A DNA stretch of 53,068 nt from a virus. Its lineage: Duplodnaviria > Caudoviricetes. The DNA is taken from positions 1 to 53,068 of the IMG/VR virus record IMGVR_UViG_3300027857_000023. One strand, written 5' to 3'. Below are positions 5,499 to 41,692 of this stretch, piece after piece. Each line of letters opens with the position of its first letter. The first letter of the stretch is position 1. Below the pieces are notes generated by a model, which worked only from the letters and a program-made list of their open reading frames with translations, searched no databases and was not told the DNA's origin. The translations under genes and the position numbers were made by a program.

Positions 5499-5572
5499 TC
5501 TATACAGCACCCTTATCGATCTCTATAATGTGAATGATTGTTCATAGTTTGTACACTTGCAAGGAGCGCTTT

Positions 5573-6472
5573 ATGCAGACTGTCACTTTTATGCCATCTC
5601 CAAATTTCTGGGCAGGACGTTTCGGCGCCAAACCACGCTACATTATTCTGCATGGCACCGCCGGGGGAACTTCAGCTCAGAATATCGCCAAATGGTTTGA
5701 GAACCCTTCTAGTCAGGTCAGTGCTCATTACATCATCGGTCAGGACGGCACGGTCGTCTGTTGTGTGAAGGAGGAAGATACCGCATGGGGCAACGGTCCT
5801 ATCAGCGGGCCTTCAGGCACAAGCGGCGACCGAATCCACCATGATGCCTGGTGGGATGCTTCCCCTGCATTAAGCGGTTACCCGAACCCGAACTTGATTA
5901 CCATCAGTATCGAGCATGTGAAACCACATGACGATAACAGCGATCCCTTAACGCCAGCACAACAAGCAGCAAGCTTTGGACTCATCAATGATATCTGCGA
6001 CAAGTGGGGCATCCCGAAAAGGAAAGCGGACGCGCTAGGAGGCATTACAGGGCACTTTTCAATGGACCCAGCTAATCGATCGGATTGCCCAGGCAACTAT
6101 GACTGGGATTCATTGTGGCGCGATTTAGGGGCAAATCCAGGACCTATTAGCGCAGGAGTTCCACAAGGGTGGACAGACGATGGAAAAACGTTGACCGCGC
6201 CCAATGGGATCCCGGTCGTGATGGGATTCCGCCAATATATTCTCGACCCTAAAAACCAATGGAGCGCGGGCAACTGGCCTATAGAGGCTGAACACGGCCA
6301 AAGCCCCTTAGAGATCAGCAACCCTGACTACGGGAGCGGATCACAACAACTCTTCCGCTGGACGATGCTCGGCTACACACAGCAGCACGGAGTCTTCGCC
6401 GAGTGGATTGGTGAGGAGCTGCTGGCGTATCGGGCAGAGGTCGCCAAGTTGAAGGCCTCGGCGCCACATTAA
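5573..6472 (+). CDS. Endolysin, N-acetylmuramoyl-L-alanine amidase (Amidase_2)
   Basis: Motifs IILHGT, VSAHYIIG, AWGNG, SIEH, GHF..D...CPG; AAGGAG RBS before ATG 5573. Confidence 0.9.
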   Translation: MQTVTFMPSPNFWAGRFGAKPRYIILHGTAGGTSAQNIAKWFENPSSQVSAHYIIGQDGTVVCCVKEEDTAWGNGPISGPSGTSGDRIHHDAWWDASPALSGYPNPNLITISIEHVKPHDDNSDPLTPAQQAASFGLINDICDKWGIPKRKADALGGITGHFSMDPANRSDCPGNYDWDSLWRDLGANPGPISAGVPQGWTDDGKTLTAPNGIPVVMGFRQYILDPKNQWSAGNWPIEAEHGQSPLEISNPDYGSGSQQLFRWTMLGYTQQHGVFAEWIGEELLAYRAEVAKLKASAPH

Positions 6473-6496
6473 TATTAAAGGAAGCAAACAGAATAT

Positions 6497-6973
6497 ATGG
6501 ACCCGGCAAACTATACCATAGGCATCCCGTTCCTCATCGTCGTCATTGCCAACTGGCTCATGCATGATACCTTGCCCAGGTGGATCAACGCGGCTATTGT
6601 GGTGATTGTCACTTTCACAGTGGCCACGATTTGGGCAGTCTTTACTCGCTCATTAGTCGGTGGATGGATTGCCAATATCATGCTCATCGCTGGTGTGAGC
6701 TTCGGCATTATGGCGGTGCCAGAACTGGCAGGAGTGCGCCAGTGGATACGCGATACCTTTCTCTCGCCATTCTCTGTGCTTGCCCCGTCTTCATCAGCGC
6801 CTCTCTCTGCTATCTCGCAGGGGATGATATCCAGTGCGGTGGCACCTGTGACAAAACGCGCCTCGATCCTGCCTGGGAATAAGACCTGGGTGAGGAGTGA
6901 TGAGGTACCGCCAGCAGGGGAGAGTGTGATTGACAAGGTGGTGCCGCCACCTGAGCAGACGCCACCCAGTTAG
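6497..6973 (+). CDS. Holin-like membrane protein
   Basis: Three hydrophobic segments; immediately follows the endolysin. Confidence 0.6.
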   Translation: MDPANYTIGIPFLIVVIANWLMHDTLPRWINAAIVVIVTFTVATIWAVFTRSLVGGWIANIMLIAGVSFGIMAVPELAGVRQWIRDTFLSPFSVLAPSSSAPLSAISQGMISSAVAPVTKRASILPGNKTWVRSDEVPPAGESVIDKVVPPPEQTPPS

Positions 6974-7014
6974 TGCTATACTGTGGCTGGGTTTGGACTA
7001 TATAAATATAAGTA

Positions 7015-7053
7015 ACATAGAGCCGAGCAGAATGGACCTGCTCGGATCTGTGT
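7015..7053. terminator. Hairpin between convergent late and early operons
   Basis: Stem ccgagcag/ctgctcgg extended by acataga/tctgtgt. Confidence 0.6.
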
Positions 7054-7080
7054 GTATGATAGGGGTGATGGGTGCAATCG

Positions 7081-7485
7081 TCAATGACTATTCTCCTTCC
7101 AGAGGTGAATCATTCCAACGATGATCTTGATGAGTCCTTGTGGCATATCCAACGCCTCTAGTGCCATGTAGAACATCGTCCAGGACTGAGACTCATCCTC
7201 AATGGCGTTCTGCTCGTGGTCAAAGAATGCCCTTGCATCAGCTCGCAGCCAGGAGACGAGTGCCGCGAACGTTTCCATGTCTGGTGTCTCTCCATTGACC
7301 AGGCGGCTCAGGGTGGATGCACTCACCCCTGAGTGCTTTGCCGCATCTCGCAAAGAAAGATGATTCTGGAGAAGCGCCGCTTGAAGGTGGGCGCGAAACA
7401 CCTGATGATTGAAACTCACTTCTTTCTTCCCTTCTTGATCTGCGCCTCTAGGCCTGCTATACTTGCCCAGGACGTTTTGATCCAT
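7081..7485 (-). CDS. XRE-family HTH regulator
   Basis: LSLRDAAKHSGVSASTLSRLVNGETP helix-turn-helix. Confidence 0.85.
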   Translation of the reverse strand: MDQNVLGKYSRPRGADQEGKKEVSFNHQVFRAHLQAALLQNHLSLRDAAKHSGVSASTLSRLVNGETPDMETFAALVSWLRADARAFFDHEQNAIEDESQSWTMFYMALEALDMPQGLIKIIVGMIHLWKENSH

Positions 7486-9374: not shown

Positions 9375-10485
9375 TTCGCCTTTCTATTGCTACTATGCAT
9401 TCAAAAATCGGGTAAATTTGCTGAGGCACGATGGCATTGCCTAATGCCTTCAGCCTGTTTGTTCGATTGGGGAGTGTCCTCCCTGTAATCGTGCGCGGCG
9501 GCTCCCATGCCTCCTGCGCGGTGTCAGGACCTGCGGGCCAACATCCGTCCACCCGATCGGAAAGCCCATCAGTGTTTCCACCCATGCTGGATTGAGGTTC
9601 TGCCCTGGCTGTGGCGCCGCTACGTAGCACAGTTGCACCTGATTGGTCTGTGTGCTCGCTCCGCCATTCGCATCCCCTGTGTTGGGTGTCGGCCACCTGG
9701 CTGCCTGGCGCAATCTTGCGCCAGGCAGCGTGTCCCGGTCCTGTTGAGACGGGGGCAGCATCGCGTTCTTGCCATCCTGAGCTGCTGGTGTAGGCCAGAG
9801 ATCCTTTCGTGCCATCATGGCCAGCGTCGGTCGGACCGACGCTGCGGGACTGTCGCTCTTGTTGACCCTGCCCGATCCACTGTCTATCGCTGTCGGAGTG
9901 GACCACGTCGCTCGTGCCATTGCTGTCAATGTCGGTTTCCCTGACGAGGCCCGCTGATTCGGGCCTCCATGCTCTGCTTCCGATGCCAGATAAGTGGGCC
10001 ACCAGGAAGACTCGTTCACGCTGATGCGGGGCGCCGACCTCACTAGCCCCGTATACCATCCATCCAGCACGATACCCCATCTGGTCCAGGTCAGAGAGAA
10101 TGGTGGCAAAGAGTTGTCCATCGTCAACTGAGAGTAATCCGACCACGTTTTCAACCACAACCCATCGTGGTCGAGCTGCGCCGATGATCCGTCTCGTCTC
10201 AGGCCAGAGGTTCCTCTCATCGGCTGCACCCTGCCGTTTACCAGCGAGTGAATTACCCTGGCAAGGGATTCCCGCAGCGAGAAGATCGATTGCTCCAAAC
10301 TCATCACCATTTACCTCTCGAATATCACTCATCCGTTTGACATCAGGCCAATGCTTCGCCAGCACCGACTGACAAAAAGGATCAATCTCGACCTGGCCCA
10401 CCACTTCTATTTCCCCGGTCCACTCAGCGGAAAGGTCCGCCCCGCCAATACCTGAGCAGAGAGACAACAGGCGCAACTTCTCCAC
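9334..10485 (-). CDS. DNA (cytosine-5)-methyltransferase, alpha-type polypeptide
   Basis: Motif I LSLCSGIGG, IV GIPCQ, VI VENV, VIII HQRERVF, X RLKALGNAIVP; motif IX not visible in this frame. GTG start at 10485 with GAGGA RBS. Confidence 0.9.
   Translation of the reverse strand: MEKLRLLSLCSGIGGADLSAEWTGEIEVVGQVEIDPFCQSVLAKHWPDVKRMSDIREVNGDEFGAIDLLAAGIPCQGNSLAGKRQGAADERNLWPETRRIIGAARPRWVVVENVVGLLSVDDGQLFATILSDLDQMGYRAGWMVYGASEVGAPHQRERVFLVAHLSGIGSRAWRPESAGLVRETDIDSNGTSDVVHSDSDRQWIGQGQQERQSRSVGPTDAGHDGTKGSLAYTSSSGWQERDAAPVSTGPGHAAWRKIAPGSQVADTQHRGCEWRSEHTDQSGATVLRSGATARAEPQSSMGGNTDGLSDRVDGCWPAGPDTAQEAWEPPRTITGRTLPNRTNRLKALGNAIVPQQIYPIFECIVAIERRNDASYTERTVNRS
9450..10304 (-). CDS. Nested alternative-frame methyltransferase beta-type polypeptide (WPTP repeats plus motif IX)
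   Basis: 284-codon ORF wholly inside the MTase gene with GAGGT RBS, four W(P/S)T(P/Y) repeats and LNPAWVETLMGFPIGWT. Confidence 0.75.
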   Translation of the reverse strand: MSLEQSIFSLRESLARVIHSLVNGRVQPMRGTSGLRRDGSSAQLDHDGLWLKTWSDYSQLTMDNSLPPFSLTWTRWGIVLDGWYTGLVRSAPRISVNESSWWPTYLASEAEHGGPNQRASSGKPTLTAMARATWSTPTAIDSGSGRVNKSDSPAASVRPTLAMMARKDLWPTPAAQDGKNAMLPPSQQDRDTLPGARLRQAARWPTPNTGDANGGASTQTNQVQLCYVAAPQPGQNLNPAWVETLMGFPIGWTDVGPQVLTPRRRHGSRRARLQGGHSPIEQTG

Positions 10486-10486
10486 G

Positions 10487-11413
10487 TTATTGATCCTCTT
10501 TGGATTCGAGGTACATGTTGAGGACAATCAGGTCCTCTTCGTTATCGAGCGAGCTAATATTCAATTCCTTGATGAGCGCCTTCCAGCCATCCATGCTAGT
10601 AGCCGCCTTGCATTCCCTTGCTCTGAGATACAGATTGAGTGGAATAATGGTTTGATCGGTGACCTCCTCGATGCCGAGATCCTTGAGCATCTGTATCCAC
10701 TCTTCTCCATTTGTAGCAGCACCACAGGCGCGGGCCACCTTCTTCGCTCGTGCAATCCGGTTCATCAGCGAGACAGACGGCGCAGGAGCGCTAGTATCTG
10801 CAGAAGCGTTATTGTCTTCTGCTGGCACTTCCTCAATCGTGACCGTCGGTATAGGTTCACGATCCGCCTGGTCCATCTCCTCATGGGTATAGATACCTGA
10901 CATTTCAGCAGGAAAGGCTTTACGAAAGGCTAACGATTCCGCGCATTTCGCAATCATGACATCTCCCATCTTCCGCCAGAGCGGTCCCGACTCCTGGACG
11001 TAGCTGCTGTAGCGTGCAACTCCCCATACCGGCTGGGCAAAGTCTTTGCGTAGGATGCCAACACGAGCTGCTGCTGGTGGCTCTTTCTTCAACCACACAT
11101 TCACCCATTGGCCATCCTCGCCACACCACTCAGGACCGATCTGGCCAGCATATTTGCCAGTGCGCTCAGCCATGAGCCTAAACCCATCAATTGATGTTTG
11201 TACCGTCATCTGGCCCTGGCGTACCACAGCGTAGATCTGGCGTGCAAACGGGTTCAATCGATAGTGATTGCACACTTCGAGAAAGAGGTTGAATTGCTCA
11301 GGCGTGGTGCCTTTTGCAATCGTGGTGCGAATCAGAGTCAACTGATCAGCAGTAAATTGTTGTTGGGTACGAGCAACCGCTCGCGTTCCATTGGTGACTG
11401 GAGTGTTCATCAC
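10487..11413 (-). CDS. bet: Phage recombination protein Bet (Red-beta-like ssDNA annealing protein)
   Basis: [56 protein letters not shown]. Confidence 0.9.
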
Positions 11414-11449
11414 GATCTCCCATTTTCCTACGTAGAATATACGACAAAA

Positions 11450-11647
11450 CTAAGCCATTGGATCAGGCTGTCCAATTGTAGAGTCAGCATCTTGTCCACT
11501 CGACTCTACAATTGTGGGTGTCTCTGCGGTGTCCTGGTCTTGCTTGCTGGCCTTTTTTGCCCACCTTTCCATAACGATGAGCGGTGTCTCTCCCTCTGCG
11601 AACTGGTAGGGATAGAAGCTTGGCAAGATGAGGATAGGCTCATTCAT
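11450..11647 (-). CDS. Hypothetical protein
   Basis: AGGAG RBS; coupled ORF. Confidence 0.45.
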   Translation of the reverse strand: MNEPILILPSFYPYQFAEGETPLIVMERWAKKASKQDQDTAETPTIVESSGQDADSTIGQPDPMA

Positions 11648-11942
11648 CGCTTTTCTCCTCGTCTGCCGGGAGATCGACCTTCTGCGGCAAATTAAGGTAG
11701 GGCGGGCCATCATAGCGCATGAGCTGGAGGACCGTGAGCGTGTAAGAACGCGTGTGTTCATAGTCTGTACCCTTCTCCCACGTCGCCATATACTCAATCT
11801 CCCATCCTCCTGGCTGGATCTCTGGCAACAAGCTGATGGATTGGATCTCATTGTGAGGATCCTTCTGCTTGCCCCAGAACGAGTTAAAGAACTCTACAAG
11901 ATCGGCGCGGGTAAAGGCCCGCTGCGTCGGCTTCTTCTCCAT
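11640..11942 (-). CDS. Hypothetical protein
   Basis: AGGAG RBS before ATG 11942. Confidence 0.55.
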   Translation of the reverse strand: MEKKPTQRAFTRADLVEFFNSFWGKQKDPHNEIQSISLLPEIQPGGWEIEYMATWEKGTDYEHTRSYTLTVLQLMRYDGPPYLNLPQKVDLPADEEKSDE

Positions 11943-11952
11943 TGCTCTTCTC

Positions 11953-12156
11953 CTATTCTTCGATCCGAATAGTTCTCGCCTTCTGCAACGCCATGAAGAG
12001 AGCATGTGCATCTTCTTCAGTATTGCAGAGGATAGTGATATCTCCGTTGATGTACACATAATGCTGTGGAGGATCGAGCGAATCATCGTGCCATTCCATC
12101 AGGTCATCTCCACCCAGCATCTTCGCTTCTACAAAGTCCATCTTTTGCTCCTTCAA
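11953..12156 (-). CDS. Hypothetical protein
   Basis: Acidic small ORF in operon orientation; start uncertain. Confidence 0.5.
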   Translation of the reverse strand: MKEQKMDFVEAKMLGGDDLMEWHDDSLDPPQHYVYINGDITILCNTEEDAHALFMALQKARTIRIEE

Positions 12157-12226
12157 GGTAGAAAACCTTTACTATTGCTCTTTCCGTGCTATCTGCCTTA
12201 CAAACTGTCGTATCTGCTCCTGCCTC

Positions 12227-12454
12227 TTAATTCAAGCGTCCCATTCGCACATTTCGCGCTTTCTGATGAGTGGCGCGTAACTGTGCTGCTAGCTCGTAAA
12301 ACTGCTGCAAGGCCTGCTCTCGTGATTCTGGAGAAGCATAATCGTCCTTTGCAAGCAGTCGTCGTTCTAACTCTTGCAACCCTGCCTCCTCAAAGGCGAT
12401 AGCCTCTTCCGTCACCGCAGTACCAAGAAGTTCCTGAAGGTCATCCGTACTCAC
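12227..12454 (-). CDS. Hypothetical protein
   Basis: GTGA overlap with the upstream ORF. Confidence 0.5.
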   Translation of the reverse strand: MSTDDLQELLGTAVTEEAIAFEEAGLQELERRLLAKDDYASPESREQALQQFYELAAQLRATHQKARNVRMGRLN

Positions 12455-12636
12455 GCCTGCCCTCTCTCTCGTCGAATAAATTGTCGTATCTGCTCCTGCC
12501 TCTCCCACTCAGGGCAGAGGCGATTGACCACGATCGCGTGATACCTGCTGCTCTTATGGCACCAACACTGTGCAAGCAAGCAGTACGGACGATGGACCGT
12601 GTGCGCCTCCTGGGTGGGCGCTACGATGGTGATCAT
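12451..12636 (-). CDS. Small Cys/His-rich protein
   Basis: H...PYC...CWCH motif. Confidence 0.55.
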   Translation of the reverse strand: MITIVAPTQEAHTVHRPYCLLAQCWCHKSSRYHAIVVNRLCPEWERQEQIRQFIRRERGQA

Positions 12637-13094
12637 GGCGTCTGTTCCTTCTCTTCCATCTCCACCTCGTCACGCAGATAGGCGCGAACGAGCTTGCAGA
12701 CAAACGTATCGATCGTACAGTCATGCGCCGAGGCCTCGCTCGCCAACCGGAAAAGGTCTGCCTGGTGGACGCCTTCTTTCACCGCAACACGATTGAGCGT
12801 CAGAGCCAGCTCCTTCAGATCACTCTTCCAATCCGCCAACGGCGCGCACAACTCCAACCATCGTCGAGCTTCCTCTTCTGTATCCACATCGTCATCCATT
12901 CCAGCACCGACCCGAGCACCACTGGCGATATGGGTCAAAACATATCCATTCAATGGATCATTCCCAGCGTGGTGGTATGCGAGGCCAGTACCGATGCCCA
13001 CACAAGCCTGAATGCTCAGCGCTTCCACGGTAGTCGGCGTCGACCGCTTAGCGGCCATCATCTCGATGGCCTGAATCTCAAAGGTCATTGTCAT
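12633..13094 (-). CDS. Hypothetical protein
   Basis: AAGGAG RBS; YVLTHIASGA motif. Confidence 0.55.
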   Translation of the reverse strand: MTMTFEIQAIEMMAAKRSTPTTVEALSIQACVGIGTGLAYHHAGNDPLNGYVLTHIASGARVGAGMDDDVDTEEEARRWLELCAPLADWKSDLKELALTLNRVAVKEGVHQADLFRLASEASAHDCTIDTFVCKLVRAYLRDEVEMEEKEQTP

Positions 13095-13105
13095 ACGCTT
13101 GCTCC

Positions 13106-13444
13106 TTACTGTACTTCGTCCTGATTGCACACCAGGACGGTCCCTGCAATATAGTCCGTCTCTTCTCCGCTCAGATCCCCAATATAGATGATGTCGGGAT
13201 GCTCCAGTAACAGCTTAGTAACTTCAGCAGGTGAGGCAAAACCAGCCAACACGGTGGCTTGCTCATTGCGTGGCAAGTCCAGCAACTTCCCCTCATCGTT
13301 GAGCACCATCAGGCGCCCGTCACGCGTGTTGATCAGTTCGATATGCCCGCCAACGATCGCTTGAAGCTCTGGCAAGCGAAAATTGTCTCCATTGGCTGGG
13401 CTAACCTGCTTGCTTGTTCCATCGGGATACAGAATGAGTCCCAT
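13106..13444 (-). CDS. DUF3846-like protein
   Basis: LPELQAIVGGHIE, MVLNDEGKLLDLPRNEQAT, DYIAGTVLV; AAGGAGG RBS. Confidence 0.75.
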   Translation of the reverse strand: MGLILYPDGTSKQVSPANGDNFRLPELQAIVGGHIELINTRDGRLMVLNDEGKLLDLPRNEQATVLAGFASPAEVTKLLLEHPDIIYIGDLSGEETDYIAGTVLVCNQDEVQ

Positions 13445-21278: not shown

Positions 21279-21620
21279 ATGGGTGTTATTCGTACGCAGG
21301 AGAATTTTGACCACATTGTCAGTGAGATTATCGAGGCTGCTAGAGGTGAGTATGGGATGTTTTCCTGCCTCTTGTGCAATGAGCAATTAACCTTTCCGGT
21401 GATTTATTGGCATGGAAACTGGGGTGTAGACATTCTCCTGCATGAGCAGTGCTGTCAGGAGTTGGTCTTCAAGCTGATGCGCGATGTCTTTGAATGTATG
21501 GGTGGAATTCCTCGCCAAACTGGCTGGAAAGGCGGAGATGTAGTGTCTCGCAGCGAGATAGAACTTATAAAGCTCAGAAAAAGGATAAAGGAGCAACAAG
21601 AGTATGAGCCAGATTTTTGA
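21279..21620 (+). CDS. Hypothetical protein with CxxC/HxxC
   Basis: GGAG RBS; CLLC...HEQC. Confidence 0.55.
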   Translation: MGVIRTQENFDHIVSEIIEAARGEYGMFSCLLCNEQLTFPVIYWHGNWGVDILLHEQCCQELVFKLMRDVFECMGGIPRQTGWKGGDVVSRSEIELIKLRKRIKEQQEYEPDF

Positions 21621-21647
21621 TTATGAGGGATGGAAAGGAGAGGGAGC

Positions 21648-21893
21648 ATGAGCAAGAGGAGCAAATGGAGAGCGCTCAGAGACCTGAGACCTGGCGCTGT
21701 TTTTGTCACGCTCAAAGGGGTCTATGCGGTCAGATCGGAATATTACAACGCTGGGGGTCCGCCATTCCAGCCCCAGTGCATCTTGCTCGCCAGTGGTGAA
21801 TATGCTCATTTCGCGGAGGGCGAAAACACACAGGTGCGCGAAGTGCAGGTGGAAGGCTTCAGCATGGAAGATGAAGAAGGAGAGGGAGCATGA
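21648..21893 (+). CDS. Hypothetical protein
   Basis: GGAG RBS. Confidence 0.55.
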   Translation: MSKRSKWRALRDLRPGAVFVTLKGVYAVRSEYYNAGGPPFQPQCILLASGEYAHFAEGENTQVREVQVEGFSMEDEEGEGA

Positions 21894-22219
21894 AAGTAGT
21901 GGGATGGATCGTCACTGTGGTGATTGGGATTGTGTTGAGTTCGGCCTGGATGGGGTATGTCCTCTCCATTTTGTGGGAGTGGTTTATCAGCCCGATCTTC
22001 CATATCGGGACCATTACGATCCCGTTGGCGATAGGGCTCTCGCTGGTCGTACGTATGCTGACGACTTCAGGGTATCAAGAGTCGGATGAGAAGCAGAAGG
22101 GCAGCACGCAGCAACTTCTCAGTTCTTGTGTGTATGTGTTTCTCTCTCTCCCCTGTTTGCGCTGCTTATTGGCGCGATTGTTCACGCTTTTGTGTAGGAA
22201 GGGAATGGAGCATGAGTGA
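21890..22219 (+). CDS. Membrane protein, probably frameshifted at (TC)5 22141-22150
   Basis: Two TM helices; removing one TC unit restores a third helix FLSPLFALLIGAIVHAFV ending at TAG 22197. Confidence 0.55.
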   Translation: MKVVGWIVTVVIGIVLSSAWMGYVLSILWEWFISPIFHIGTITIPLAIGLSLVVRMLTTSGYQESDEKQKGSTQQLLSSCVYVFLSLPCLRCLLARLFTLLCRKGMEHE

Positions 22220-22424
22220 GACGCCGATGAACGTAGCGGTCTGTGTTTCGTGGAAGACGGATGTGATGCCAGTACCGAGCTTCTTCTACTACCACAAAGG
22301 CTGCTACGACCTGGGAACCGCACGCTTGTCAAATCAGAGCGTGCGTGAGTTTCCGGCTCGCGATATATCGGTGAGCGCCTGTTGTGCATGGTGTCGCAAG
22401 AAGATCAGAGAAGATAGGGCATGA
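22212..22424 (+). CDS. Small Cys-rich protein
   Basis: GGAG RBS; HKGC...CAWC. Confidence 0.5.
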   Translation: MSETPMNVAVCVSWKTDVMPVPSFFYYHKGCYDLGTARLSNQSVREFPARDISVSACCAWCRKKIREDRA

Positions 22425-22702
22425 ATGATGATATCAAACGGTATCAGTATCTGCGTCCATCGCTGGTGCTGAGTCCGTCAGGCAAAGCCATCACCAGGCT
22501 TGTGGGCGACAAGGTGTGTGTCGTGCGATTGCTGGAAACACCAGCGTGGACTCGATACTACTATGCCGTCATTGATCTGATGACGGGAGAGGCGGCCGAG
22601 GGCCACGAATACAACCTTGCAGTGTTGCAAAGAGCCTTCGAGAACAGTGGGCTTGCCATTACGCCCTATCAGCGTATCTGGTCAGCGCTGGAATGGTGGT
22701 AG
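22421..22702 (+). CDS. Hypothetical protein
   Basis: ATGA overlap. Confidence 0.5.
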   Translation: MNDDIKRYQYLRPSLVLSPSGKAITRLVGDKVCVVRLLETPAWTRYYYAVIDLMTGEAAEGHEYNLAVLQRAFENSGLAITPYQRIWSALEWW

Positions 22703-22811
22703 CGAAGTAACAAGCAGCAAAGACGCCTGGCACGTCACACGCCAGGCGCGCACCTCGCAGCATGAGCGGCGAGATGTGGGAATTGTAAAGCATGAGAAAG
22801 GAACGTACAAC

Positions 22812-23135
22812 TTGAACATTGTACCTTACTCGTTTCGGGGAATCAGGGAATACCCCCGAACGCAACAGCAGCCCGAGACGCCTGGGCAGAATAACGGCGT
22901 CTACATTATGGTCCACCCCGATCATCTAGGGTCCACTCTTGAGATGATCACCGGATGGTTCGCCGGGCGCGATGAGATTGATCTGGTCTGTTCAGGCATC
23001 TCTGACAAGCGTGGCCTGGGCTACATCATCATGGAATGGATCGAATGTGAGATTGATCAGCTCTTCCTGGCTATCTTGCGTGATGAGGAACTTGTAGCAG
23101 ACTACACCACCTATACGCACGAATTGGAGGATTAA
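22812..23135 (+). CDS. Hypothetical protein, first gene of the membrane/ATPase module
   Basis: GAAAGGA RBS before TTG 22812. Confidence 0.55.
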   Translation: MNIVPYSFRGIREYPRTQQQPETPGQNNGVYIMVHPDHLGSTLEMITGWFAGRDEIDLVCSGISDKRGLGYIIMEWIECEIDQLFLAILRDEELVADYTTYTHELED

Positions 23136-23136
23136 C

Positions 23137-23655
23137 ATGGCAAGGATGTCACAAGTTCGGGGCGTCATCTCTCATGTTGCGGCCAACGGGGGCAATGTCC
23201 CTTTGCTCAGGCTGATACTAGGCGTCGTCCTGGTCGTCTTCTTCCTTCTCGCGCTCATGCTCCAGGTGCAAACCAGCGAGGCTTTTATGCTGGCTGGATC
23301 TCCTGTTGGGCTAGCGCCTGATTGGGGCATCCTGCGTCAGCCATACGATCTGCTGCATGGAACGCTCCAGATGGATATGAGTAAGGCAGTCATGTGGGGA
23401 TGGGGTATTGAGTTGGTCTATCTCGTCTGCGTGGTTGGTGAAGTGGCCGTGTCGCGATGGCAGGGCTGGTTTAAGACCGGGGCAATCATCCTGGTCGGCT
23501 TCAATTTCTGGACGGATCTCAATTATGGGGCCTTACCGAGTGGGTTCGGTGGCCAGCTCGCCTTTGCGGGCATTACCTCCTTTATCGTTGCTTTTTTTGG
23601 TGTGGTTGGGCTGGGCCTCATTTGGGGCGCTATCACTGAGATGTCCGGTCACTAG
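23137..23655 (+). CDS. Four-TM membrane protein
   Basis: Four hydrophobic segments; GGAGG RBS. Confidence 0.75.
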   Translation: MARMSQVRGVISHVAANGGNVPLLRLILGVVLVVFFLLALMLQVQTSEAFMLAGSPVGLAPDWGILRQPYDLLHGTLQMDMSKAVMWGWGIELVYLVCVVGEVAVSRWQGWFKTGAIILVGFNFWTDLNYGALPSGFGGQLAFAGITSFIVAFFGVVGLGLIWGAITEMSGH

Positions 23656-23668
23656 AAAGGAGACCCAG

Positions 23669-25222
23669 ATGAGCGAAGAGATGAAAGAGAAAAAATACCC
23701 CATGCAACAATCTGCGGCCTTCGCAGGGAGCACATTCGTGACGATGGGACTGTTTGATCTGTTGGCTCATCTGGGGCCAACAGGGCTCTTTGTGGGTGGG
23801 CTAGCGTCGTATGTGGCGTGGAAGCATGGACCAGAGTTGTACGAGCAGGTGAGGGGTATGTTTCCCACCTCTGAGTATCAGGAGGAAGAAGGCCCGGTCT
23901 ATGAGCCTCAGAAGGTACAGCCCAAAGGTCGGAGCTTTTGGGATCGAGCGCTGGGGATTCATCCAGATGATGATGGCGATGAGGAGATGACGCCTGATCT
24001 GGGGCGGGCAGTCGATGAGTCCAGATTGCGACGGATGCACAAAGATTGCTTGTTCCTGGGTCTGCTGCTCTGGCCTCACGCCAATGATCTTTTGAGCAAT
24101 CGTATCACTATTCTGGGCCAGCCAGGCGCGGGCAAGAGTAACACGGTCGCCGTGGTGTGTGAGGAGCTGGCCCGCTATGATGCTCCTTTGATCGTCTTTG
24201 ACACGAAGCCTGAGTATGCGGTGCTGTGCGCTCAACCCTACTTCAGCAATCCGAAGCTGGCCAGCGTAGAGAATGTTACTCCGCAAACAGCTTTCACCTT
24301 CGGCAAACAGATGATGGATGAGCGGTGGCAGGTCGTCCTCGATCTCACGTCCTACAAGAACGATACGACTGCGGCGAAAGTCATGATCAACATTCTGGCG
24401 GGCATTTGGGAATGGGAGGCGTCTCTGGCGAATGAGGACCGGCTCCCATGCGCAATTATCCTGGACGAGGCTCATACATGGCTGCCACAAAATGCAGCCA
24501 TGAGCCGTGTGAGTCGGCAAGAGGGCAGAGATGGTGAGCCTTCCATCTTTACCTGTTTGCAGCAGTCCTTCTTCAGCCTGGTCACTGGGGGACGCAGTAT
24601 GGGTATGGGGTGCATCATCTCGACGCAGCGACCAGCCGACGTTGATAAGCGGGCCATTGCTGTTGCTGAGTGGCGCATCCTGCTTAAGGCAGATATGCCT
24701 AATGATTTGGCGGTGTATCAGAAGCTGGGTATGGACCCGAAAGTGGCGTCAGGGTTGGCGAAGGGTGAGGCATATGTGCGAGGCCCTGGTGGGGTAGCAG
24801 GCATTTACCAGTTACGGCAGCGCAAGAGTCCAGACGACGCAAAAACCCCGGGGCTTTCTGCCCTGCAGCGAAAACGAGCCACTTCGGTTTCCACTTCGCA
24901 AGCAGGCATTATTCCCACTTCGGATGTACCAGAGCAAGCTCAACAAGACGAAGTGGACCGAAAGAGCCTGCGAAGAGAGCCGAAGGAGTCCGAAGTGGGG
25001 ATGCCACTTCGCCATCTTTCTGAGCTTGAAAGGCAGGTGGGAGTGATGTTCTTTGAACAGAGTATGAAGCTGACAGAAATCATGAGAGAGATGTATCCAG
25101 AGGTCAAAGGTGGCGATGCCTACCAACGGGCGACCAGTGAAGTACAGGAAGCGATCAGGCGATATGCGGCGGCGGTGCGGCATGCGGCCGTTCAATCTGT
25201 GAGACAAGAGGAGAATGCATAG
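23669..25222 (+). CDS. Membrane-anchored HerA/FtsK-superfamily P-loop ATPase (DUF87-like) with C-terminal HTH-like tail
   Basis: N-terminal TM hairpin, Walker A GQPGAGKS, IVFDTKPEY, Walker B IILDEAH, GRSMG...STQRP. Confidence 0.85.
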   Translation: MSEEMKEKKYPMQQSAAFAGSTFVTMGLFDLLAHLGPTGLFVGGLASYVAWKHGPELYEQVRGMFPTSEYQEEEGPVYEPQKVQPKGRSFWDRALGIHPDDDGDEEMTPDLGRAVDESRLRRMHKDCLFLGLLLWPHANDLLSNRITILGQPGAGKSNTVAVVCEELARYDAPLIVFDTKPEYAVLCAQPYFSNPKLASVENVTPQTAFTFGKQMMDERWQVVLDLTSYKNDTTAAKVMINILAGIWEWEASLANEDRLPCAIILDEAHTWLPQNAAMSRVSRQEGRDGEPSIFTCLQQSFFSLVTGGRSMGMGCIISTQRPADVDKRAIAVAEWRILLKADMPNDLAVYQKLGMDPKVASGLAKGEAYVRGPGGVAGIYQLRQRKSPDDAKTPGLSALQRKRATSVSTSQAGIIPTSDVPEQAQQDEVDRKSLRREPKESEVGMPLRHLSELERQVGVMFFEQSMKLTEIMREMYPEVKGGDAYQRATSEVQEAIRRYAAAVRHAAVQSVRQEENA

Positions 25223-26099
25223 TATGACAACAACGCAGCAAAAAGAGTCCACCAGATGGGAGGGGTTTGTCTCTCTGAATTGGTATGATGGCCTGATTTC
25301 GTTTCTCTTTCGATTTGTGAGCAAGACAGCAGAGCCCCTGCTGGCGGTGGGTGTCATCGTGAGTGCAGCAGACTTCCTGCTCAAGGGCCAGCTCATGGCG
25401 CACAATCCAGGGCTGGCCACCTCCTGGGCATGGACGCAGGCATTAGCGATTGAGGCCTCGACGGGGCCGGTATTGGTGTTTGGCCTCTCTGCATTTGCAG
25501 GGAAGGACATGATCAAAGGATGGCTCTATGCAGTCCTGGCGGCTCTGCTCTTCGTGGTCGGCGGCGCGATGCTGCTGCTGCAGATGGGAGCGTCAGTAAC
25601 TGGCGCGGTGGAAACATCCGTTCCTGGCTTCGTGCTGTGGTCACTCTTTGTGCTACGTGTGATCGTCAGCGGTGGCATGGTGGCGCTAAGTTGCACGAAG
25701 CATATGCGGTTTAGTGGATTGTTCGCTGAGCAACCCGTGGCACAAGTATCACTTTCTGATGAGAAGATGCAGCTCATCCTGGCAAAACTGGCAAAGTTGG
25801 ACGAGATGGAAAAAACGTTGCAAGCAACCATTGTTACCCCTCTACAAGAATCGCCAACTCTTGCCTTGCCCTCGCCGGATGCTGAAATTTTAGAGTCTCT
25901 CAGTGAAGATGGGGAGGAGAACAGGGGTTTACCAAGCGAACAGAAAGAAGGTGTACCAAACGAGCAGAGTTATGGTGATCAAATCGAGGCCCTCTACAAA
26001 GAGAATCCGAAGATCACGGCAGTAGAAGTTGAAAAGAAAATTGGATGTAGCAGGACGACAGCAGCAAACTGGCTGCGAAGAGTCAGGCCTGCAAAGTGA
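25215..26099 (+). CDS. Four-TM protein with coiled coil and C-terminal HTH (SpdB/DUF2637-like architecture)
   Basis: Hydrophobic N-terminal half; C-terminal ITAVEVEKKIGCSRTTAANWL. Confidence 0.7.
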   Translation: MHSMTTTQQKESTRWEGFVSLNWYDGLISFLFRFVSKTAEPLLAVGVIVSAADFLLKGQLMAHNPGLATSWAWTQALAIEASTGPVLVFGLSAFAGKDMIKGWLYAVLAALLFVVGGAMLLLQMGASVTGAVETSVPGFVLWSLFVLRVIVSGGMVALSCTKHMRFSGLFAEQPVAQVSLSDEKMQLILAKLAKLDEMEKTLQATIVTPLQESPTLALPSPDAEILESLSEDGEENRGLPSEQKEGVPNEQSYGDQIEALYKENPKITAVEVEKKIGCSRTTAANWLRRVRPAK

Positions 26100-26120
26100 G
26101 TGATAGAAAGGAAACAAGCA

Positions 26121-26213
26121 ATGAATGACGTATGGGTCAGCCTTCTCGGAGTTGGGATCATCCTGGAGGCGATAGGGATTTTCTGGCTAGCCAGATTTTT
26201 GAGAAGGAAATGA
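26121..26213 (+). CDS. 30-aa single-TM peptide (not in ORF track)
   Basis: GAAAGGA RBS; MNDVWVSLLGVGIILEAIGIFWLARFLRRK. Confidence 0.6.
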   Translation: MNDVWVSLLGVGIILEAIGIFWLARFLRRK

Positions 26214-26244
26214 GCGATTGCGCTCATTTTGAAAGGAATCACAC

Positions 26245-26412
26245 ATGTTGATACTCAGTAGAAAAATCGGGGAAAGGATTGTGATTGCAGGCAATATCAC
26301 GATTGCTGTCCTCGATATCAAAGGCGATCGGGTGAAGGTTGGTATTACAGCACCTCTCGAAGTATCTGCTAATCGAGAGGAAGTGCAGAAGAGAGAGGAG
26401 GCACGGAAATGA
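26245..26412 (+). CDS. csrA: CsrA/RsmA carbon storage regulator (55 aa, not in ORF track)
   Basis: MLILSRKIGERIVIAGNITIAVLDIKGDRVKVGITAPLEVSANREEV matches the CsrA pattern, including the REE arginine; GAAAGGA RBS. Confidence 0.9.
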   Translation: MLILSRKIGERIVIAGNITIAVLDIKGDRVKVGITAPLEVSANREEVQKREEARK

Positions 26413-26723
26413 ACACGGCATCAGATTATCAGGTGAGGAACATGGAAACTGGACTACTTTTAATTGAGGACGACAACCAACTGTTTTTGATTATTCCAGG
26501 GAAGGGCCGTATTGCTCTTCCGCCTGGTGCAGCCATGGAGATACGCCTGGGTGGTTATTGGATTGCCGGGCACTATTGGCCTGACCTGGATGAGCAGGAT
26601 AGACCGGTAGGCCAGCACGACTTCAAGGACATGGAGGAAGCATCATTCTGTGGTCTGACCTCAGGGATGAAAGCCCGCATTGATCACGAAACAAGAAAGG
26701 AAGCAAGCAATGTTCATGAGTAG
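26409..26723 (+). CDS. Hypothetical protein (DUF5348-like)
   Basis: LPPGAAMEIRLGGYWIAG...LTSGMKARI. Confidence 0.55.
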   Translation: MNTASDYQVRNMETGLLLIEDDNQLFLIIPGKGRIALPPGAAMEIRLGGYWIAGHYWPDLDEQDRPVGQHDFKDMEEASFCGLTSGMKARIDHETRKEASNVHE

Positions 26724-26886
26724 TATCCAGAGTTGGGTAGAAGCAACGTCGGATCAACAAGAGGTCATCATTTCCGATGATGACCTGATCTCGATCACGT
26801 CCACGATGGCTGACGGTCAATCGGGGATGCTGAGTCTGTCATCGGGCTTAGCAGTGGAAGAGGAAACGAAAGAAGGGAGCAACTAA
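26710..26886 (+). CDS. Hypothetical acidic protein
   Basis: AAAGGA RBS. Confidence 0.45.
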   Translation: MFMSSIQSWVEATSDQQEVIISDDDLISITSTMADGQSGMLSLSSGLAVEEETKEGSN

Positions 26887-27152
26887 TGGAAAAAGATACA
26901 TCACCAGTGTTCGGGCGAGCGCCCAGGCTCAGGAAGATCGTCACGATCAAGCAGGTGAACGAATTCGCGCCATCGATGGATGTCACAGCCGTCTACCTGT
27001 CAGACGAGCTACCAGAGTGGTTTGCGCCGCTACAGTCAATCGTGGAGGATGAGGGGTTTAGTAGTAGGGGCTCTATAGTAATCACGCTGGGGTCTGATGA
27101 TGGTACTGGCGGGAAGGTGGTCTATAACATTACGGCGAAGAGGGAGGACTGA
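26886..27152 (+). CDS. Hypothetical protein
   Basis: TAATG overlap. Confidence 0.55.
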   Translation: MEKDTSPVFGRAPRLRKIVTIKQVNEFAPSMDVTAVYLSDELPEWFAPLQSIVEDEGFSSRGSIVITLGSDDGTGGKVVYNITAKRED

Positions 27153-27153
27153 G

Positions 27154-27402
27154 ATGCAACTCCTTGAGCGCAACACGGAACTGACCCAGCGCCAAATCGA
27201 AATTCTCTGCCGAGTCGCCCAGGGTCTCAATAATGCAGAAATTGGTGATCGCCTGTGCGTGCATGAGGGCACGGTGTCCAACCATGTGCACGTGATTATG
27301 AACAAGCTCGGTCTCTTTAGGAGAGTTCATCTTGTCATTCACGCGCTGAAAGAGGGACTCATATCATTGGATGAAATTGAATTGGAGTATTGGATTGATT
27401 AA
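27154..27402 (+). CDS. Stand-alone LuxR/GerE HTH regulator
   Basis: LTQRQIEILCRVAQGLNNAEIGDRLCVHEGTVSNHVHVIMNKLG. Confidence 0.9.
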   Translation: MQLLERNTELTQRQIEILCRVAQGLNNAEIGDRLCVHEGTVSNHVHVIMNKLGLFRRVHLVIHALKEGLISLDEIELEYWID

Positions 27403-27814
27403 TGCATGGTTGTGCCTGGTGGGGACGATGCTCCTGCCAGGCATGGGGGTAGCCAGTGCTGTCCTGGTCTACCTGATATTCAAAAGTCCGTCAGAGATTG
27501 AGAGGACGACGAGCTATCACGTGGGCGACTTAGTAATGATCACCTATCAAGGGCAGAAGAGGACGCAGGGCAGGATCGGTGAGATTACCCCGCTTTCGCC
27601 TGGGCAATTGCCTCTGGCACGAATCGCCACTATCGGAGTCAAGTTTGATAGGCAGGGCAATATCTATCGTGACAACGTGAAAATGCCCCTCTGGCAAATC
27701 AAAGGGCGAGTGACGAGGCGTTTCAGCGCGAATGTGCATGATACCGCATATCATCTTGCCCTGGAACAGGAGTGGCTCTTGTATGGGCCGCCACGGAAGG
27801 AGCGTGTAGGGTGA
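27371..27814 (+). CDS. Membrane-anchored hypothetical protein
   Basis: N-terminal hydrophobic helix; start uncertain. Confidence 0.5.
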   Translation: MKLNWSIGLINAWLCLVGTMLLPGMGVASAVLVYLIFKSPSEIERTTSYHVGDLVMITYQGQKRTQGRIGEITPLSPGQLPLARIATIGVKFDRQGNIYRDNVKMPLWQIKGRVTRRFSANVHDTAYHLALEQEWLLYGPPRKERVG

Positions 27815-37693: not shown

Positions 37694-37787
37694 GGGTGAG
37701 TATCCAAACGGTAAGGAAACTGACGTATTCAGGGGGCAATACGGTACCGGGGTATTGCTATTGGAGGTTCGATTCCTCCCTCATCCA
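37694..37787 (+). tRNA. Atypical class II tRNA-like RNA (Tyr/GTA-like, 5-nt anticodon loop)
   Basis: Acceptor gggtgag/ctcatcc+A, D arm tcc-aaacggtaa-gga, ctga-cgtat-tcag, long variable arm gcaatac/gtattgc, T arm ggagg-ttcgatt-cctcc. Confidence 0.7.
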
Positions 37788-39008: not shown

Positions 39009-39081
39009 CTAGTGTTAGCTCAGTTGGTAGAGCAGCAGTTTCTTAAACTGTTTGTCGTCCGTTCAAATCGGGCACACAAAA
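39009..39081 (+). tRNA. tRNA-Lys(CTT)-like RNA with degenerate acceptor stem
   Basis: D arm gctc-agttggta-gagc, gcagt-ttCTTaa-actgt, T arm gtccg-ttcaaat-cgggc; acceptor pairs contiguously only as gtgt/acac; no CCA. Confidence 0.7.
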
Positions 39082-39762: not shown

Positions 39763-40263
39763 ATGCCACGCACCTGCACGATCTGTAGTCATCCAGAGCG
39801 ATCTGCTATTGAAGAGGCTGTTGTTGCCGGTACATCATTTCGAATCATAGCGAGTCGTTTTTCCGTTGGGGCAGCTTCTGTTCAGAGGCATGTCGCTGAT
39901 CACGTCGCAAACTCCATTAAGCAATCACAGACGGCGAAAGAGGAAGCTCAGGGTCTGGACGTCGTGAAACAACTCAAGTTCATCAATACCGTCACTCTCG
40001 ATATTCTTGCCGAGTCGCGCAGTGGCAAGGAAAAGAAGAATGGTATGGCTCTCTTCGCCATAGACCGCGTGATTAAGCAACTTGAGCTGCAGGCGAAGCT
40101 CCTCGGTGACATCGATACACCTCAGGTGAATATCATGATATCACCCGAGTGGCAAACGATACGCGGGACGATCATTCACGCGCTTACTCCCTATCCCGAC
40201 GCCCGTGTCGCTGTAGCTGGCGCCCTTGCCACATTGGAGGGTAATCATGCTCGCCTCAACTGA
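39763..40263 (+). CDS. Terminase small subunit-like HTH protein
   Basis: CTICSHP...SFRIIASRFSVGAASVQRH; directly upstream of the ATPase gene. Confidence 0.75.
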   Translation: MPRTCTICSHPERSAIEEAVVAGTSFRIIASRFSVGAASVQRHVADHVANSIKQSQTAKEEAQGLDVVKQLKFINTVTLDILAESRSGKEKKNGMALFAIDRVIKQLELQAKLLGDIDTPQVNIMISPEWQTIRGTIIHALTPYPDARVAVAGALATLEGNHARLN

Positions 40264-40991
40264 TTTGGCTATGGGGCTTGATCCAGTACATCTGTCGTTG
40301 GCCGCTGGTATTGAACCCGATGCATGGCAAGCTCGATTGCTCAGAAGTCAATCACAACAACTGTTACTCAATTGCTCCAGGCAGGTGGGGAAAAGTACCA
40401 CCACGGCTGTGCTCTCAGACCACACTGCATTCTACGAACATGGTGCGCTTATCCTCTTGCTCTCTCCATCCATGCGACAATCGCAAGAGCTATTCAGGAA
40501 GTGCCTGGAGGTGTACCGCGCTCTTGGTCGACCAGTGCCTGCGGAATCAGAGAATGCGCTTAGTCTTGAATTAGAGAATGGTTCGAGGATTGTGAGCTTA
40601 CCAGGCAAAGAGGGTAGTATCCGGGGCATGAGTAGTGTACGACTGCTCATCATAGATGAAGCAAGTCGTGTCCCTGATGCGCTTTATATGTCGGTACGGC
40701 CAATGTTAGCTGTGAGTGGGGGGCGTATCCTTCTGTTGAGCACGCCATTCGGGACGCGTGGCTTCTTCTATGAGGCATACAAACAGCGGTCTGAATGGGA
40801 CTATTATGAGATTCCTGCTACAGAGTGCCCACGCATCTCTCCTGAGTTCCTTGCAGAAGAGAAGGAAAGCATGGGACAGTGGTGGTTCGAACAAGAACAT
40901 GTGCAAGTTTTTGGACGCTCAGACATCGGCCTTCCGTAGCGAGGATATTGAGCAGATTGTCGATCCAAAGGTGGAAACATGGCAGTTTTGA
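40247..40991 (+). CDS. Terminase large subunit ATPase domain, with +1 frameshift near 40898
   Basis: Walker A SRQVGKS, Walker B LIIDEA, LSTP; WWFEQE continues as MCKFLD...TWQF in the +1 frame. Confidence 0.85.
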
Positions 40992-41692
40992 TTGATACTC
41001 TCAATCCTATTTGCATCGGTGTAGATGTAGGACAAATTCACGACCCTACAGCCATTGCTATTGCAGAAGTAACCCAGGTCCATACAGGAAAATATCAGTA
41101 TGGACGTGAGCAGACGCTGGGGCATCATGATCATTTCGGCCAATGGATACCACCAACCGGCATTGAGCCAGTCATGCGAAGTGAATATACTATTCGCCAC
41201 ATCAGGCGGCTCCCGTTGGGAACAAGCTACCCGGATGTGGCTCTCCATATAGCGGAGATGCTCTGTAGCCAGCTCCTGGCAAACCGCAAAGTACGAGTTC
41301 TGATCGATGTTACAGGGGTTGGCCGACCCGTCTATGACGATCTCAAGAAAGAGACACGCTTGCGTCCTGAAGCCCAGCACGTCATCTTAAAGCCAATTAG
41401 CTTCTCGCATGGAGAGAAGTACAACCCAAGTACGGGCATACTTGGCAAGGCCTATCTCGTGAGTCGTCTGCAATCACTGCTCCAGGGGAAGCGCGTTCAT
41501 GGCCCGGATACATCAGAAATGAAAGCGACACTAGAAGAACTGCGCGTGTATGAGATTAAGGTTGACGATGCTGGAAAGGACACCTATGGCGCATCGATCG
41601 GCAAGCATGACGATCTGGCGACGGCGCTAGGCCTGTCCTGTTTAGAAGATCCGTGGAGTGATCGTGTCGCCTATAGCAATCGCGTGTATTGA
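40979..41692 (+). CDS. Terminase large subunit nuclease (RNase H-like) domain as a separate gene
   Basis: IGVDVGQIHDPTAI, IDVTGVG, KHDDLATAL; own AAGGTGG RBS. Confidence 0.85.
   Translation: MAVLIDTLNPICIGVDVGQIHDPTAIAIAEVTQVHTGKYQYGREQTLGHHDHFGQWIPPTGIEPVMRSEYTIRHIRRLPLGTSYPDVALHIAEMLCSQLLANRKVRVLIDVTGVGRPVYDDLKKETRLRPEAQHVILKPISFSHGEKYNPSTGILGKAYLVSRLQSLLQGKRVHGPDTSEMKATLEELRVYEIKVDDAGKDTYGASIGKHDDLATALGLSCLEDPWSDRVAYSNRVY

Follow-up and report, generated by a model that had tools for sequence, protein, structure and literature searches.

The virus record IMGVR_UViG_3300027857_000023 of the IMG/VR database, analysed here over its whole length of 53,068 bases (the window), carries a tightly spaced run of five genes, named A to E (positions 22,812 to 26,213), which is built around an ATPase of the HerA clade encoded by gene C. 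Genes A to D, possibly together with E, may form a membrane machine that translocates or tethers double-stranded DNA (dsDNA) of the phage itself. This reading is preferred over the alternatives, with a confidence that stays a little below an even balance. It starts from the structure of the genes, the fold class of the ATPase and its intact catalytic residues, the gene order in related elements, and the exchange of one motor type for another among these relatives. The ATPase belongs to a superfamily that pumps dsDNA, it is flanked by two membrane partners, and there are two helix-turn-helix (HTH) type ends in the module, which suggests that DNA is held at the membrane. The interchange with FtsK/SpoIIIE-type motors points in the same direction, as does the fact that D alternates with a gene for an actin-like DNA-segregation protein. 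Since both C and D carry the HTH-type ends, DNA rather than protein is the expected substrate. As to the purpose of such a movement, spread between compartments or positioning of the DNA is ranked first, defence or exclusion is ranked about level with tethering or partition, and protein export is placed far behind.

A HerA-clade motor in a five-gene operon

Gene A (22812..23135) encodes a soluble protein of 107 amino acids (aa) with a TTG start, gene B (23137..23655) a polytopic membrane protein of 172 aa, gene C (23669..25222) the ATPase of 517 aa, gene D (25215..26099) a protein of 294 aa with four transmembrane (TM) helices, a coiled coil and an HTH end, and gene E (26121..26213) a peptide of 30 aa with a single TM segment. 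All five are open reading frames (ORFs) on the plus strand, the distances A-B, B-C, C-D and D-E being 1, 13, -8 and 21 nt. Each start is preceded by a purine-rich ribosome-binding site, with AGGAG in the B-C spacer and an AGGAA-type site before E. Given this tight spacing, the coupled run described in a preliminary description of the window, which had compared it to the Tra/Spd transfer systems of mycelial bacteria, is real. Promoter-like and terminator-like sites did not exceed the level found in shuffled sequences.

The partner proteins of the ATPase, A, B, D and E, had no match in Pfam, NCBIfam or PADLOC at E<=0.1, and the best PDB profile hits were insignificant (E of 0.4 for A, 1.5 for B and 0.026 for D). 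For A, PHROG gave no match either, and no relative was found in the PDB or the Atlas. The protein is nevertheless conserved: an alignment of 14 sequences contains 12 invariant columns, and its N-terminus is conserved from residue 1, in line with the TTG start. Protein B likewise matches no PHROG family, and its alignment covers 25 sequences. Its hydropathy profile has clear maxima at residues 26, 85 and 141 and a weak fourth one. It is therefore polytopic as first described, with three to four TM helices rather than a firm four. An identity of B with DUF2637, suggested by a structure search of the Atlas (TM-score 0.56, model confidence 0.55 on the predicted local distance difference test, pLDDT), was dropped, as PF10935 had no match in the window at E<=1 or in phiC31; the controls gave no match either.

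For D, the initial assignment of four TM helices, a coiled coil and a C-terminal HTH was upheld by the AlphaFold model, which contains four long helices (22-169), a further helix (178-212), a disordered stretch and a three-helix end (250-290), and by four hydropathy peaks at residues 38, 76, 104 and 140. Residues 254-290 match phrog_18890, labelled as a transcriptional regulator (E 0.006), and HTH domains were the sole Foldseek matches of the model, none of them significant (none at E<=0.001). Peptide E has one hydrophobic segment at residues 6-24, which agrees with the single-TM peptide proposed earlier. It is not conserved, since no homologue was detected in 94 related loci, and E is therefore left as an unconfirmed gene call. 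Small TM peptides are found at other positions in related modules.

The ATPase C consists of an N-terminal hairpin (residues 1-62), a disordered linker (about 63-115), a HerA-clade P-loop core (about 120-390) and a three-helix, HTH-like end (about 450-517). Its AlphaFold model, built on 21 homologues with a mean pLDDT of 78.7, exceeds a pLDDT of 90 over 120-390 and 450-517, shows helices at 12-62 and places a second disordered stretch after the core. No beta-barrel precedes the core in this model; residues 1-120 contain helices and disorder only, so that the HAS barrel of HerA is missing. K156 of Walker A and E267 of Walker B do not vary among the 21 homologues, nor do G150, G155, D178, G308 and Q320; R309 and R321 are almost as constant. 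The C-terminal domain of the window's own protein matches Spo0A_C weakly (E 0.026), and homologues match HTH_24, HTH_IclR and HTH_Crp_2 at the aligned position, at or above the Pfam cut-offs.

Profiles and folds agree on the class of the motor. The protein matches the DUF87/HerA central domain in Pfam (E 3.4e-10), HerA as the best PADLOC profile (1.9e-16) followed by mad8 (4.7e-12), HerA models of NCBIfam at about 1e-8, including HerA_antiphage (3.8e-8), and phrog_2666, which is labelled 'terminase large subunit' (8.7e-14). HerA is also the top Foldseek match (1e-11), and the HerA structures 4d2i, 8xaw and 9x1m align with Z scores of 25-27.4 (27.4 for 8xaw) and a root-mean-square deviation of 2.1-3.3 over 245-260 residues. 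Lower scores were obtained for VirB4 (4ag6, Z 23.1), DndH and TdpA (22.6-23.0), TrwB (20.0), B204 (19.9 over 196 residues), TcpA (18.9), EccC and EssC (18.6-18.7) and FtsK (18.1-18.6). PF01580 (FtsK/SpoIIIE) was absent from the Pfam matches at E<=0.1, and NF041214 (TraB) was reached with only 15 bits against a cut-off of 800 (E 0.0065). Thus, of the HerA/FtsK type named in the preliminary description, the HerA part holds by fold and profile, whereas a grouping with FtsK or TraB does not (Z of about 18.5 compared to 25-27). On this modelled and profile-based evidence, C is predicted to be a catalytically intact HerA-clade motor that has lost the HAS barrel and acquired a membrane hairpin as well as an end of the DNA-binding type.

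Defence genes are frequent in temperate phages, and a membrane HerA-type ATPase could sense or expel foreign DNA and thereby protect the lysogen or the infected cell. Such a role in prophage defence or superinfection exclusion is regarded as unlikely, although the best fold and profile matches given above include HerA proteins of defence systems. In one of the systems concerned, defence is described as depending on MAD7-MAD8, a module of an ATPase and a nuclease (PMC13662399). The likeness of C to HerA, whether of repair (HerA-NurA) or of defence (Sir2-HerA, DUF4297-HerA and MAD7-MAD8 of MADS), lies in the fold and the DUF87 domain. However, no Sir2, DUF4297, NurA-like or other nuclease or effector gene adjoins it, the HAS barrel that defines HerA is absent, and C is instead membrane-tethered in its predicted layout, with an HTH end and polytopic partners that have no PADLOC or Pfam match. 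The preliminary description had held that a grouping with defence-type HerA would speak against DNA transfer; the ATPase does fall into the HerA clade, yet it lacks both the barrel and a defence effector partner, and on these two points the module is not a member of the HerA systems. Moreover, the genes are part of a coupled run with early and replication genes rather than an isolated insert, and the corresponding slot in relatives also holds an FtsK-type motor or is followed by a ParM-like segregation gene, neither of which fits known defence systems.

Conserved gene order and exchange of motors

A word-based search with C returned 96 proteins. Alignment-based scans provided 94 loci, of which five come from genomes and nine from viruses, while the other 80 are the best among 204 from metagenomes; the nine viral loci compare with zero matches when the viral contigs were scanned with the single protein. 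In an exhaustive search of 1.84 billion proteins, 1258 representatives were found at E<=0.001, 469 at 1e-10 and 105 at 1e-30. INPHARED and PLSDB contained no close relative and only distant DUF87 proteins of about 25% identity, mostly from haloarchaeal plasmids. No description of the module was found in a literature search spanning open-access papers and bioRxiv. Judged by these searches, C represents a sizeable, uncharacterised family.

The order of the genes is well beyond chance. By tblastn, B was found in 31 of the 94 loci, always directly 5' of C, A in 21, upstream of B, and D in three. Gene slots were counted in the 79 distinct loci that remained after the removal of duplicates, using crude gene calls of our own and BLAST clusters. 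Among the 55 loci with at least 800 nt of upstream sequence, 39 carry a B-slot family (c2, c6, c10 or c98), a number that rises to 43 if any other protein with at least two TM helices is included, and ten have A within three genes 5' of C. Gene-call errors account for some of the 12 upstream misses; by tblastn, B is present in L016 and L035, for instance. Mutual homology of the B-slot families c2, c6 and c10 was not shown (hhalign 25-39%). As expected in the preliminary description, the genes thus co-occur across many elements.

Downstream of the ATPase, 22 of the 43 loci with at least 1500 nt of sequence carry a D-type family, and 25 carry a D-type or other multi-TM protein. The membrane domain of D is homologous to c1, the commonest downstream family (hhalign 95.7%, E 9.3e-9), and in the alignment of the D family the members have four helices in common, then a coiled coil whose length varies, and an HTH at the end. 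A ParM-like actin gene was found in 12 of the 43 loci, and six have neither. This actin-like gene (cluster c3, at 5094-6182 of locus L008 and in 18 other loci) lies just 3' of the ATPase and matches ALP_N (4.3e-17) and MreB-like_C (2.6e-8). It is followed by a small gene of about 100 aa without known identity (cluster c7, 12 loci). D-type and ParM-like genes fill the same slot and never occur together (0 of 43), an exclusion that rests on crude gene calls and covers only five genes downstream.

This alternation also bears on a reading in which the module organises replication or segregation, that is, in which phage DNA that is replicating or plasmid-like is anchored to the membrane and sorted within one cell, without transfer to another. 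The module would then be akin to a partition system or to the DNA-binding membrane proteins by which phi29 replication is organised. This reading is considered improbable to about the same degree as defence. The shared position of membrane proteins (25) and ParM-like genes (12) in the 43 loci would suit such an organiser, as would the location of the module directly after a DnaC-like loader gene (phrog_50, 7.3e-46) and a weak DnaD-like gene. The layout of D, with a membrane anchor, a coiled coil and a DNA-binding end, resembles that of p16.7 of phage phi29. However, a ring translocase with intact catalytic residues exceeds what simple tethering needs. The window phage has an integrase and no partition gene was seen in it, one ParM-bearing relative (L076) has an integrase as well, and the exclusion of D by ParM is subject to the gene calls mentioned above.

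The relatives also show an exchange of motors behind the membrane-proximal part of the module. For about 32 proteins of the word-based search, the similarity to C is confined to roughly its first 100 residues, with 50-70% identity, and 16 of these 32 carry the Pfam domain FtsK_SpoIIIE; one of the proteins (P0073) is 60% identical to C over residues 1-100 and unrelated beyond. In three loci from metagenome-assembled genomes (MAGs), L096 to L098, FtsK-type motors are preceded by A (67-70%) and B (69-75%). What follows them is either D-like or ParM-like: L097 encodes a D-like protein (5943-7094, 383 aa) with four TM helices and an HTH_24 match at 6e-6, and L098 has the ParM-like gene, downstream of a motor that matches PF01580 at 3.1e-6. 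FtsK/SpoIIIE-type motors, which had been considered for the window itself, therefore do occur in this slot, in relatives. The relatives are a natural experiment in which HerA-type and FtsK-type motors have been swapped on one membrane dock.

Across 29 loci, the identity of B to the window's B correlates positively with the score of the hairpin (Spearman 0.91) and negatively with that of the motor (Spearman -0.71). As B tracks the hairpin and opposes the motor, A, B and the hairpin appear to travel as one unit, and the motor, its end domain and the downstream genes as another. B is likely the docking partner of the N-terminal hairpin of C. A complex prediction for B and residues 1-115 of C gave a score of 0.00 compared to a mark of 0.32, which amounts to no verdict and is evidence neither for nor against a contact. 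In one locus (L071, 8960-11161), a six-TM domain of the c6 type is in frame with the ATPase in a single ORF of 733 aa (hhalign 100%, E 2.9e-67), which favours a real association of the B-slot protein with the ATPase; the ORF may reflect either a genuine fusion or a mistake in the assembly.

The FtsK-type motors raise the question of protein export, in which the module would be a minimal type VII-like device that secretes a small protein such as A. The best NCBIfam matches of these motors are EccC and EssC, very weakly so (24-28 bits against cut-offs of 346-778), the two structures align with C as listed above, and A, at about 100 aa, has the size of WXG100 substrates. Nevertheless, export is very improbable. 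EccC and EssC have tandem FtsK-like ATPase domains, whereas C has one P-loop domain instead of three and no EccC or EssC match in NCBIfam. Moreover, the HTH-type ends of C and D do not fit a protein substrate, and A occurs in only 21 of the 94 loci and matches no WXG-type family.

Several variants of the module were observed among the relatives. Four ATPase homologues of 719-766 aa (L039 225-2468, L040 3325-5625, L048 5027-7270 and L060 9713-11872) have an extra N-terminal part of about 95 residues with paired Cys-x-x-Cys motifs and conserved histidines, which resembles a zinc ribbon or an HNH domain by eye. A contig of a Ktedonobacteraceae MAG (L006, about 9900-13300 and beyond) carries two adjacent modules: one has a DUF87-type ATPase, and the other, a few kb downstream, combines A with a B gene of the c10 type and a motor of the FtsK type 55% identical to that of L096. 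Two MAGs (G003 and G004) have three matches each. A gene of cluster c4 (19 loci, e.g. L096 5960-6754 on the minus strand) encodes 264-280 aa with an N-terminal HTH_17 (7.5e-8), lies on the opposite strand, often 5' of the module, and may be a switch or regulator; it has no counterpart in the window.

Host, known systems and possible function

The distribution of C points to a single host lineage. Its profile matched six of 401 genomes sampled from the phylum of a Ktedonobacteraceae MAG (G001), all six in the class of this MAG, and 21 of 169 genomes of that class, some with two to three copies and one of them an unpublished genome (G459). The genome loci fetched comprise four from Ktedonobacteraceae and one from Chloroflexia. 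All nine related IMG/VR records have a phrog_2 large-terminase match, one of them weak (3e-4); three are 96-100% complete and two are classed as proviruses. The family PF05065, tried as a capsid marker, was a poor choice and matched none of the nine. The module is restricted to phages and prophages of one bacterial class. The window phage, a soil phage, probably infects thread-forming Ktedonobacteria, as judged from these matches, and an earlier guess at such a host fits the confinement of the genome matches to the class of the Ktedonobacteraceae MAG. Ktedonobacteria are described as having an actinomycete-like morphology (PMC5371077; PMC6497799).

A mycelial host invites comparison with the TraB/Spd systems of Streptomyces plasmids (pSVH1, pIJ101) and of actinomycete integrative and conjugative elements (AICEs). 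Thoma et al. 2015 describe TraB as an FtsK-like translocase and report that intramycelial spreading requires the operon spdB3-spd79-spdB2, that translation of the spd genes is coupled, and that SpdB2 is an oligomeric pore-former with four TM helices and a coiled-coil part which binds dsDNA (PMC4447253). The module resembles such a system in that its ATPase, a putative ring of the FtsK-HerA superfamily, would sit at the membrane, in its small and polytopic membrane proteins encoded in a coupled run, and in a host lineage that is mycelial. The winged-helix domain at the C-terminus of TraB reads clt, a locus of short direct repeats; its candidate counterpart in C is the three-helix end, modelled with high confidence, whose homologues match HTH families. 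The module differs from TraB/Spd in its HerA-clade motor and in its carrier, a tailed phage, and no clt-like repeats were found near it. Its motor is of another clade, and neither clt-like repeats nor homology to phage-borne Spd-like proteins were detected; the module is thus placed outside the TraB/Spd family, to which it would be analogous in outline, with unrelated accessory proteins. For the plasmid-phage pZL12, a major tra gene and genes next to it are reported to be required for transfer (PMC3583192), so that the idea has a precedent in Streptomyces.

Other membrane-associated or DNA-pumping systems resemble the module in part. FtsK/SpoIIIE proteins share with C a membrane anchor, a long linker, a ring motor and a C-terminal DNA reader of the winged-helix type, but they belong to another motor clade; C has a single weak hairpin anchor that seems to need a separate membrane protein, and no skewed 8-mer stands out in the window. 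In the archaeal Ced system (CedA, CedA1/A2 and CedB), a HerA/VirB4-like ATPase and polytopic and small membrane proteins pass DNA through the membrane. It belongs to another domain of life, however, and C remained far below the cut-offs of its profiles (11.5 bits against 700 for CedB, NF041017, and 16.7 bits against 600 for CedD, NF053655). Packaging ATPases of the STIV2 B204 and PRD1 P9 type belong to the same superfamily, whereas the window phage encodes a terminase, a portal and head proteins of the HK97 type itself and carries the module in its early region, away from the head genes. VirB4 of type IV secretion systems (T4SS) aligns well in structure, as stated above, while its profile (TIGR00929) gave 10.9 bits against a cut-off of 643 (E 0.091). 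In agreement with the preliminary description, no relaxase or T4SS part was detected among the 30 window ORFs scanned.

In the mechanism that we infer, including ring formation, the DNA substrate, the contacts among B, C and D and the biological role, the small polytopic protein B would hold the N-terminal hairpin of C at the cytoplasmic membrane. C would assemble into a ring like other motors of the HerA/FtsK superfamily and pull dsDNA through its pore, with its C-terminal three-helix domain selecting or holding the DNA. D, with its four membrane helices, coiled coil and HTH, would tether DNA at the same site, and the operon would be read together with the early and replication genes. In a mycelial Ktedonobacteria host, replicating phage DNA could in this way be moved or positioned with respect to membranes and cross-walls, either across them or along them, and the outcome could be spread between hyphal compartments or into spores. 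Virion-independent spread is plausible; the earlier designation as a phage-AICE hybrid with virion-independent transfer is an inference of the same kind.

Several results weigh against a DNA-moving machine of this kind. The motor belongs to the HerA clade and not to FtsK/TraB, and the best-known roles of motors in this clade are in DNA repair and defence against phages. The hairpin of C reaches a maximum Kyte-Doolittle mean of 1.36 over 19 residues, below the usual 1.6. The TM anchor stated in the preliminary description is therefore weaker in this phage's own copy; of 57 full-length homologues, 37 attain 1.6 (median 1.82). The correlation of B with the hairpin could be explained without contact, by adjacency and a recombination breakpoint in the linker. 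The module contains no peptidoglycan-binding or cell-wall-cutting gene in Pfam and PHROG scans. The earlier view of B and D as Spd-like was not supported: apart from one chance-level match, neither matches any of the deposited phages (50,697 records, E<=1). This includes phiC31, which is said to carry a SpdB2 homologue and whose gp25, the sole protein with three TM helices among the 15 examined, gave less than 3% in hhalign. No clt-like or KOPS-like repeat set was found. Repeats and clt-like signals were examined over 21500-27500, where the repeats look like chance pairs, and k-mers over the whole window, where no 8-10-mer is clearly over-represented; an 8-mer with a strand skew of 8/0 is matched by 12 other 8-mers with a skew of at least 7/0. 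Finally, the assignment of the host is itself derived from genome matches.

A broader and more speculative proposal, which is rather doubtful, is that tailed phages of mycelial bacteria carry a 'movement machine' that pumps replicating genomes through cross-walls into neighbouring hyphal compartments or spores without virions. It would be modular, with a fixed membrane dock (A, B and the hairpin), a HerA or FtsK motor, and a D tether or a ParM-like, actin-like pusher. If this were true, a single infection or induction event might suffice to overrun an entire mycelium, in the manner of plant-virus movement proteins. Should the module move DNA between compartments, it would represent virion-independent phage spread in a second, unrelated mycelial phylum. 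This would imply convergent evolution with Streptomyces conjugation and blur the line between phages and conjugative elements. Regardless of its role, the module offers a HerA-clade motor that is, as predicted, tethered to the membrane.

Genomic setting and neighbouring genes

The window represents the entire record, which is classed as linear with a CheckV completeness of 82%. Terminase, portal, capsid and integrase genes detected in profile scans identify a tailed, temperate phage, and the terminase mentioned in the preliminary description was borne out, alongside a portal and a capsid of conventional type. The integrase is a tyrosine integrase (phrog_1, 4.8e-84); portal, scaffold and major head protein are also encoded, as are an endolysin, a DNA methyltransferase and RecT. 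Beyond about 15.4 kb, the long ORFs lie almost exclusively on the plus strand, and the module is placed in the early region, directly after the replication genes.

Directly 3' of the module lies a gene for a CsrA homologue of 55 aa (26245..26412, plus strand; Pfam CsrA 4.8e-19, phrog_9500 2.9e-18). No counterpart was found beside the module in any of the 94 related loci, so it is treated as a neighbour whose membership in the module is not shown. Further downstream, an ORF of 101 aa (27097-27402, plus strand) has a C-terminal end that was judged by eye to be an HTH of the LuxR/GerE type. The large terminase is encoded by two plus-strand ORFs of 237 aa each, separated by 39 nt: the first (40226-40939) holds the ATPase part (phrog_7579, 1.1e-57) and the second (40979-41692) matches the C-terminal part of phrog_2 (8.9e-7). 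The gene may have been split, it may contain a frameshift, or it may once have housed an insertion that was later lost.

Two tRNAs were predicted by ARAGORN on the plus strand, a tRNA-Lys(CTT) at 39009-39081 and a tRNA-Asn with the anticodon ATT at 37694-37787, which, at 94 nt, is unusually long and may be a false call or bear an insertion. A tape-measure gene is located at the 3' end of the window. At the 5' end, an ORF of 1072 aa without a PHROG match (1-3219, plus strand) is open at the window's edge. As the tape-measure gene at the far end of the window would precede this ORF, the record seems to be either circularly permuted or interrupted inside the tail gene region.

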